This document shows, piece after piece, positions 17,310 through 17,807 of a stretch of DNA of 42,072 nucleotides. Origin of the DNA: Shigella phage phiSD1. The stretch lies in sequence record PQ571306. The stretch is one strand, 5' to 3'. Numbering within the stretch: position 1 is the stretch's first letter; each line of letters begins with the position of its first letter. A program made the translations under genes and the position numbers. The notes beneath the pieces were generated by a model, which did no database searches, was not told the origin of the DNA, and saw only the letters and a list, made by a program, of their open reading frames with translations.

Positions 17310-17807
17310 TTATTCTTCTTCGAAATACTTGTTCTTTATTGCCGTCAGACGTTCCAGGTACTCAGCCAGGTCTTCGTCTTTAATCGCGGCAATCTTCATC
17401 TTCTTACCGGTGAACTCTTCCAGCAGTTCATCAGAATCATCACACGCGGCATCGCTCGGACCTTCGTTAATTGCATCGTCGATAGCCTGAATCTGGTCAC
17501 GAAGAGACTGGTAATCGACTTCTTCTTTCACTTCTTCCGGTTCTGGCGTCGGTTCCTCCGCTTTAGCTTTACGCGGCTTGCGTTTCGGCTTCTCTTCTTC
17601 TGCAGGTTTAGTGTCGACGATGCCTTCGCCTTCAACCGGAATTTCTTTTGTTTCTTCGGCACACTCGTCTACTACTTCTTTGGTATACACTGCCGTCTCT
17701 ACTTCCAGCGGCGCGGCAACCTGAACAACTTGTTTCGCGCTGTTAGCAGCAATCAGTTCATGTGCAACTACGAAACGTTCCAGTAATTTTAAGAATTGGT
17801 CTAACAT
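17310..17807 (-). CDS. Highly acidic protein (165 aa), first gene of leftward early operon
   Basis: Strong RBS aggagagga; about 27% Asp+Glu by eye; function unknown. Confidence 0.5.
   Translation of the reverse strand: MLDQFLKLLERFVVAHELIAANSAKQVVQVAAPLEVETAVYTKEVVDECAEETKEIPVEGEGIVDTKPAEEEKPKRKPRKAKAEEPTPEPEEVKEEVDYQSLRDQIQAIDDAINEGPSDAACDDSDELLEEFTGKKMKIAAIKDEDLAEYLERLTAIKNKYFEEE

Follow-up and report, generated by a model that had tools for sequence, protein, structure and literature searches.

In phage T7, gp4 and gp2.5 use acidic tails for docking onto the polymerase, and the T7 gene for gp5.9, like the lambda gene gam, adjoins phage exonuclease/annealase genes. T7 also makes Ocr (gp0.3), a small acidic protein that is expressed first from an early promoter and forms a fully folded, elongated helical dimer. 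A further precedent is Gp44 of phage SPO1, in which a DNA-binding motif is combined with a flexible acidic DNA-mimic domain (PMC8208478). Here, we analyzed a highly acidic 165-amino acid (aa) protein encoded at positions 17310..17807 (minus strand) of Shigella phage phiSD1 (sequence record PQ571306; the whole stretch of 42,072 nucleotides is referred to as the window). The original prediction regarded this protein as a candidate Ocr-type DNA mimic with an anti-restriction function and held an acidic replication protein to be equally possible. The data contradict an Ocr-like function for the family, and we tentatively favor the reading that the protein serves the replication–recombination module of the phage itself, as a stoichiometric adaptor that binds other proteins.

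Conservation and genomic position of the acidic gene

The open reading frame (ORF) has an ATG start and a TAA stop. The predicted richness in Asp and Glu was borne out: the protein contains 44 Asp and Glu residues (26.7%) and 22 Lys and Arg residues (13.3%), with a net charge of −22 and a pI of 4.4, and it is the most acidic product among the 68 window ORFs of at least 80 aa. It matched the profile of family phrog_3127 in PHROGs over its full length (E 7.3e-67; residues 1–165 on profile positions 1–177 of 178), an entry listed as of unknown function. Sequence searches of Pfam, NCBIfam, PADLOC and the PDB returned only low-complexity noise for this protein. About 2,500 relatives, all unnamed or called "hypothetical," were found in a search of 5.8 billion proteins, and when 1.84 billion cluster representatives (50% identity) were searched exhaustively, only 32 related clusters emerged. 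The net charge ranged from −11 to −29 among 135 homologues, so that acidity, as calculated from the sequences, is a trait of the family. A few homologue records in GenBank (e.g., phages 590B, SZH-1 and XY1) carry the label "13.88 kDa late protein." This name was rejected, as it disagrees with the 18.6 kDa size and the early-operon position, and it was apparently propagated by automatic annotation.

The region from 17000 to 18200 matched 436 phage records. The best was Escherichia phage BUCT823 (97.5% nucleotide identity), whose translation is 100% identical to the acidic protein, followed by many Kagunavirus and Jerseyvirus genomes. Because the best nucleotide and protein matches were of this kind, the window is assigned to Kagunavirus (Guernseyvirinae), that is, to a virulent O-antigen- or capsule-dependent siphovirus. 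By tblastn, the acidic gene was present in 484 phage records, essentially every Guernseyvirinae genome, and its record counts followed those of the helicase-primase gene (355 vs. 359 in Salmonella phages, 11 vs. 11 under the name Kagunavirus, and 5 vs. 5 in Serratia phages). Outside this subfamily, gp44 of Dhillonvirus HK578 (143 aa, net charge −21) is a homologue that aligned over its full length (hhalign probability 99.6%, E 1.4e-23). Its gene opens the equivalent operon, at the same position of the same module, and genes of the gp44 type were found in about 155 Dhillonvirus records.

The gene order helicase-primase, helix-turn-helix (HTH) regulator, acidic gene, small genes, DUF2800 exonuclease, gp2.5-like single-stranded DNA-binding protein (SSB) and PolA was shared by fBC-Eco01, Bas70, Jersey, K1G, Otaku, VSiP and TS33. 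The same order was kept in all 70 IMG/VR loci, down to 30% identity, with the helicase present in 69, the HTH gene in 68, the exonuclease in 67, the SSB in 64 and the gene for a 90-aa protein in 53. Judged by gene order, the acidic gene belongs to the core of this module and has a fixed place in it, in both Guernseyvirinae and Dhillonvirus (about 640 genomes). A variable anti-defense accessory gene would not show this pattern.

A member of the family was also seen in a Cornellvirus-like phage genome (335-20826) at the extreme end of a 283-kb Salmonella contig (SRFP01000005.1; GCA_008682445.1), and contigs longer than 1 Mb were also indexed. The copy on the Salmonella contig may stem from a scaffolding error; otherwise, this supposedly virulent phage may persist in a carrier state or be integrated.

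Protein architecture and selection

An AlphaFold2 model was built on 135 sequences, and its division of the protein into three parts agreed with the alignments. The first part is a predicted amphipathic N-terminal helix (MLDQFLKLLERFVVAHELIAANS; residues 2–26, 17730..17804, minus strand) with a predicted local distance difference test score (pLDDT) of about 90. Its sequence hardly varied, even in homologues that were only 30–40% identical outside the helix, and residues R11, A15, E17 and A20 were invariant in 19–20 diverse members.

The second part is a charge-block linker predicted to be disordered (residues 27–95, 17523..17729, minus strand; pLDDT below 50 for residues 28–94). It is rich in Glu, Lys, Pro and Ala and varies in length from 58 to 84 aa, with insertions and deletions (indels) among the homologues; linker indels also occur in several Dhillonvirus genomes, in one record of which a repeat_region is annotated there. 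Two short motifs with residues conserved at 90% or more lie within the linker, namely IPVEGEGIVDTKP (residues 55–67, 17607-17645, minus strand) and the basic motif KPKRKPRKAK (residues 73–82, 17562-17591, minus strand). Their consensus forms are IPVEGE(G/D)(I/V)VDTKP and EEKPKRKPRxxK, and both a basic and an acidic cluster were present in 219 of 219 unique members. The basic motif was compared with the AT-hook (PF02178) and this assignment was rejected: it has no RGR core and no Pfam match, and RGR[PK] occurred in only 3 of the 219 members.

The third part is an acidic three-helix bundle with a net charge of −13 (residues 96–165, 17313..17522, minus strand; pLDDT about 90 or higher). The AlphaFold2 helices span residues 99–115, 119–133 and 144–162, and the conserved residues include Asp119, Asp123, Asp126 and Asp144. 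On a helical wheel, seven acidic residues of the second helix surround a core face formed by Leu128, Leu129 and Phe132. The domain is tandemly duplicated in homologues P0132, P0150, P0153 and P0154 (208–227 aa). As modeled, the succession of a helix, a disordered linker bearing short motifs, and a small bundle would be a typical adaptor layout.

The ratio of nonsynonymous to synonymous substitution rates (dN/dS), estimated across Kagunavirus and Jerseyvirus, was 0–0.24 for codons 1–26, 0.17–0.29 for the middle of the gene and 0–0.065 for codons 96–165. The acidic ORF is a real gene under purifying selection, which is strong in the folded parts. The C-domain of the window protein was 100% identical to that of K1G and matched Jersey at 67 of 70 residues. 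Synonymous sites of the gene varied freely (proportion of synonymous differences, pS, 0.2–0.8), with a synonymous divergence of 0.2–0.6 in the two genera, and because they diverge in this way, the constraint acts on the protein and not on an overlapping nucleic acid element. An overlapping DNA or RNA element was thus ruled out as the cause of the invariance of the N-terminal helix.

When Kagunavirus was compared with Jerseyvirus, identity was 88–100% for the exonuclease, the 90-aa protein and the C-domain of the acidic protein, compared to about 64% for the helicase-primase and the SSB. Given this difference in identity, the first three travel as one block.

Restriction sensitivity of phages carrying the gene

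The protein was compared with known anti-restriction proteins. There was no Pfam match to Ocr (PF08684) or ArdA (PF07275) at E ≤ 0.1, and hhalign of the family profile against the Ocr sequence (checked against 1S7Z) gave a probability of 0.2%. Neither Ocr nor ArdA was among the matches when the predicted structure was compared with known folds. T7 Ocr resembles the acidic protein in its small size and in its Asp and Glu content (29% vs. 27%), and the two may also be alike in being expressed first, to judge from the promoter matching 11 of 12 consensus positions and the strong Shine-Dalgarno sequence directly upstream of the acidic gene. They differ in that Ocr is folded throughout, whereas about 40% of the acidic protein is predicted to be disordered and a conserved basic cluster is present. 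Lys and Arg account for 5% of Ocr and 13% of the acidic protein (2.6-fold), and the net charge per residue is −0.24 and −0.13, respectively. A rigid, fully folded helical body that presents a B-DNA-like array of carboxylates with very few basic residues, as in Ocr, was not recovered by structure prediction.

Published plating data are available for phages of the BASEL collection that carry orthologues. Bas70–74 and Bas76 each encode an intact 166-aa orthologue with 91.5–92.1% identity to the window protein; the linker holds nearly all of the differences, with at most 1–3 changed positions in the folded domains. In Bas71, Bas72, Bas74 and Bas76, the promoter is identical to that of the window and the ribosome binding site (RBS) differs by one base. 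The BASEL extension paper describes the Kagunavirus isolates as showing "high sensitivity to RM systems" (PMC11990801). In its S1 Data, the efficiency of plating (EOP) was 5e-6 to 8e-4 on the type I restriction-modification (R-M) system EcoKI (Bas70–73) and 6e-5 to 4e-2 on the type I system EcoCFT_I (Bas70–76), with only 2–6 recognition sites per genome. Type II and type III systems likewise restricted these phages strongly (PMC11990801). The evidence is indirect, as it covers R-M systems and undeleted phages that carry orthologues of the window protein. Because these phages, four of them with an identical promoter and a near-identical RBS, are still cut by type I R-M, an Ocr-like function is contradicted for the family, and an Ocr-type decoy is very unlikely as judged from the orthologous sequences. 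In a Jerseyvirus mining paper (PMC9409062), the anti-restriction factor proposed was a DarB-like protein and not a member of the acidic family. On these data, acidity and an early position alone are insufficient for calling an Ocr-like anti-restriction gene, and phages of this group remain fully exposed to type I–III R-M systems.

Expression signals of the acidic gene

A putative early sigma-70-type promoter (TTGACA-17 nt-TATAGT; 17839..17867, minus strand) precedes the acidic gene. It matches 11 of 12 consensus positions and is one of only two such matches within 14.5–21.5 kb. The acidic gene had been described as the first after this promoter; this was the case in the window and in Bas71, Bas72, Bas74 and Bas76, but not in Bas70, Bas73, VSiP and Otaku, where one extra small ORF (58–75 aa) lies between the promoter region and the acidic gene. 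The gap between promoter and gene appears to be a variable insertion point, while the acidic gene itself is fixed. The Shine-Dalgarno sequence (AGGAGAGGA; 17812..17820, minus strand) lies 4–8 nt 5′ of the ATG and forms an anti-Shine-Dalgarno duplex of −9.1 kcal/mol. The RBS is thus very strong, as first noted, but it ranked fourth among 72 putative genes by pairing energy and not first in the window.

Seven nucleotides past the stop codon, a GC-rich hairpin (GCGGCC-TTAG-GGCCGC; 17287..17302, minus strand; centroid fold −13.5 kcal/mol) is followed by TTTAAC. The position of this hairpin is kept in Otaku and HK578, where the stems differ and the T-tracts are stronger. It probably acts as a leaky terminator or attenuator that separates the acidic gene from the genes for the 90-aa protein and the exonuclease. 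A strong promoter, a strong RBS and a conserved hairpin after the stop together imply that the output of the acidic protein would exceed that of the downstream enzymes. A second near-consensus sigma-70 promoter (TTGACA-17-TATATT; 15723..15751, minus strand; 11/12) lies directly upstream of the SSB gene, and because of it the SSB and PolA genes do not depend on read-through from the promoter at 17867. A search of 16.9–18.3 kb against Rfam gave no match, and a transcriptome paper on Kagunavirus K1B4 (PMC12645636) gave no usable per-gene timing for the acidic gene.

Two 25-nt direct repeats (17843-17867 and 17887-17911) are 84% identical and overlap the promoter and a second promoter-like site. 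On the minus strand they cover a tandem pair of promoter-like sites, and on the plus strand the promoter of a divergent 71-aa HTH_3 (Cro-like) regulator gene (17932..18147, plus strand; PF01381, 1.2e-12). The repeats are probably the operators of this regulator, in a phage regarded as strictly virulent.

Neighboring genes and shared acidic motifs

Downstream of the acidic gene on the same strand are the 90-aa gene (phrog_4965; 16994..17266), a homologue of HK578 gp43 (BLASTP 9e-11), and the gene for a DUF2800/PD-(D/E)XK exonuclease (15756..17012) that ends in EEDLE (codons 15756-15770). These are followed by the gene for the SSB, a gp2.5-like (Enc34-type) ssDNA-binding/annealing protein with the tail DDLEDDEEDEAPRRERRRR (15025..15654, minus strand). 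On the other side, the replicative helicase-primase (AAA_25; 18165..20405, minus strand) also ends in EEDLE (codons 18165-18179). Equivalent tails (DDLE, DDLEN, SDLDD, DEDLKN and DDDLKD) were found across Jersey, K1G, Otaku, VSiP, TS33 and HK578, and in the SSB the sequence DDLEDDEEDE stands ahead of a basic RRERRRR end. The pattern [DE][DE]DL[DEAN] occurred just before the basic motif in the linker of 97 of 135 family members and in only 4 of 129 window ORFs. By analogy with T7, the shared acidic motifs suggest that a network of electrostatic docking exists, in which the acidic protein may take part or act as a regulator.

Discussion

This study shows that the acidic gene is real and conserved in a syntenic position, which expression signals surround it, how its product is built, and that phages with orthologues lack protection from type I systems. 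The adaptor role and the partners are what we infer. In the proposed adaptor mechanism, an abundant early protein would serve as a fixed accessory of the T7-like module (helicase-primase, PD-(D/E)XK exonuclease, gp2.5-like SSB/annealase and PolA) of Guernseyvirinae and Dhillonvirus. The invariant amphipathic N-terminal helix would be used for docking or oligomerization, the disordered linker would present alternating acidic and basic short motifs, and the small acidic three-helix bundle would form the third part of the adaptor. Inside the phage DNA-metabolism machinery, the protein would bind other proteins stoichiometrically and so act as an adaptor or regulator, and it would not be a decoy for restriction enzymes. 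Its likeliest partners would be the co-inherited 90-aa protein and the exonuclease. The link from the docking network to the acidic protein is weak because neither the window protein nor HK578 gp44 has a copy of the motif in its linker. The replication protein that had been considered equally possible at the outset fits the evidence, as the gene is a core syntenic member of the module by its sequence context; the two proposals do not stand as equals, however, and a role in the replication machinery accounts for the data better than an Ocr-type one.

The rival explanations differ in the partner that the acidic protein is supposed to bind. A protein of the Ocr/ArdA type would mimic B-DNA and block type I R-M and BREX; the acidic composition and the first position after the early promoter would suit such a role, but the restriction of Bas70–76 by type I R-M despite intact orthologues of about 92% identity, the lack of any Pfam, hhalign or fold match and the disorder of about 40% of the chain make it extremely improbable. 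A regulator that alters host RNA polymerase or termination for downstream expression, made first and with a terminator behind it in a layout like lambda N/tL1, would agree with a first gene followed directly by a positionally conserved hairpin or terminator, with the basic cluster inside the disordered region and with the lack of a phage-own RNA polymerase in the regions examined. However, the protein is acidic overall, unlike N-type antiterminators, the near-consensus promoter at 15751..15723 already serves the SSB and PolA genes, and searches of Pfam and other libraries detected no similarity to known antiterminator or sigma-binding families, so we consider a regulator of this kind very doubtful.

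A host-directed decoy was also considered. The protein would be a flexible acidic DNA mimic that fills the site where a host protein binds DNA (for example RNA polymerase, HU or H-NS, RecBCD or BREX, though not a type I R-M enzyme), with the linker and bundle as the mimic, the basic cluster or N-terminal helix as an anchor, and SPO1 Gp44, T7 gp5.9 and lambda Gam as precedents. The conserved negative charge (−11 to −29), the predicted early and high expression of a first gene as judged from its promoter and RBS, the invariance of the N-terminal helix across phages of different enterobacterial hosts and the modular precedent of SPO1 Gp44 all agree with a decoy. The exonuclease/annealase pair adjoins the acidic gene, as it does gam and gp5.9, and Kagunavirus and Dhillonvirus phages are sensitive to OLD, a sensor of RecBCD inhibition. 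A 2026 preprint identifies RecBCD inhibitors, Gam and gp5.9 among them, as triggers of OLD (bioRxiv 10.64898/2026.07.10.737580). The HK578 escapers from OLD (n = 3) mapped to gp43 (a frameshift, esc3), the helicase-primase and the gp45-46 promoter region, and none to gp44. Because the gp43 frameshift alone gave full escape with gp44 intact, proteins of the gp44 family probably do not suffice on their own to trigger OLD through RecBCD inhibition, as judged from three escapers. OLD sensitivity also varies widely among BASEL phages with identical acidic proteins: Bas73 formed no plaques, Bas74 plated at 0.003–0.06, and Bas71, Bas72 and Bas76 differed too (PMC11990801). The sensitivity of Bas70–76 does not track the sequence of the acidic protein and therefore gives no support to a role as a RecBCD inhibitor; a Gabija/RecBCD paper contained no data on these phages. 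The Lys and Arg content (13% vs. 5% in Ocr), the lack of a fold match to any known mimic and the status of the gene as a core syntenic and not a variable accessory gene also stand against a decoy, which on balance appears unlikely. A further reading, in which the acidic protein, possibly with the 90-aa protein, is an undescribed flexible acidic hub or decoy that acts on host DNA-end processing or on replisome organization through its charge-block linker, seems rather improbable; if it were true, it would be a new functional class, represented in about 640 sequenced siphoviruses and among the BASEL model phages.

Should the protein be an adaptor, the family would be a missing, universally conserved part of a very common replication–recombination module of enterobacterial siphoviruses, and the coordination of the helicase-primase, exonuclease, SSB and polymerase, which share acidic tails, could be explained by it. 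Kagunavirus, Jerseyvirus and Dhillonvirus phages find wide use both in phage therapy and as members of the BASEL model collection.

Among the known systems compared, the true homologues are the hypothetical proteins HK578 gp44 and gp46 of Sodalis phage SO-1, which share the three-part architecture, the acidity (net −21) and the genomic position of the acidic protein. They are only about 33% identical to it, and their linkers lack the VEGE and KRKPR motifs and carry other Lys-rich and Asp-rich blocks instead. T7 gp5.9 and lambda Gam are likewise acidic and encoded directly upstream of an exonuclease/annealase pair in OLD-sensitive phages, but they have no sequence or fold similarity to the acidic protein, and OLD escape in HK578 maps to neighbors and not to gp44. 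SPO1 Gp44 (PMC8208478) is early and modular like the acidic protein, in that an element that is basic or binds DNA is joined to an acidic segment of a flexible kind and to a disordered region. It is described there as a flexible DNA-mimic inhibitor of RNA polymerase; the likeness would be architectural only, with no sequence relationship detected, and the order and nature of the domains differ, as does the setting, a host-takeover cassette in SPO1 compared to a replication–recombination module here. With the acidic C-terminal tails of T7 gp4 and gp2.5, the phages studied here share D/E-D-L-type motifs, on the helicase-primase, the exonuclease, the SSB and most linkers of the family. In T7, the acidic element is a tail, whereas here it is a separate 165-aa protein with folded domains, for which docking onto the polymerase or SSB is suggested by analogy.
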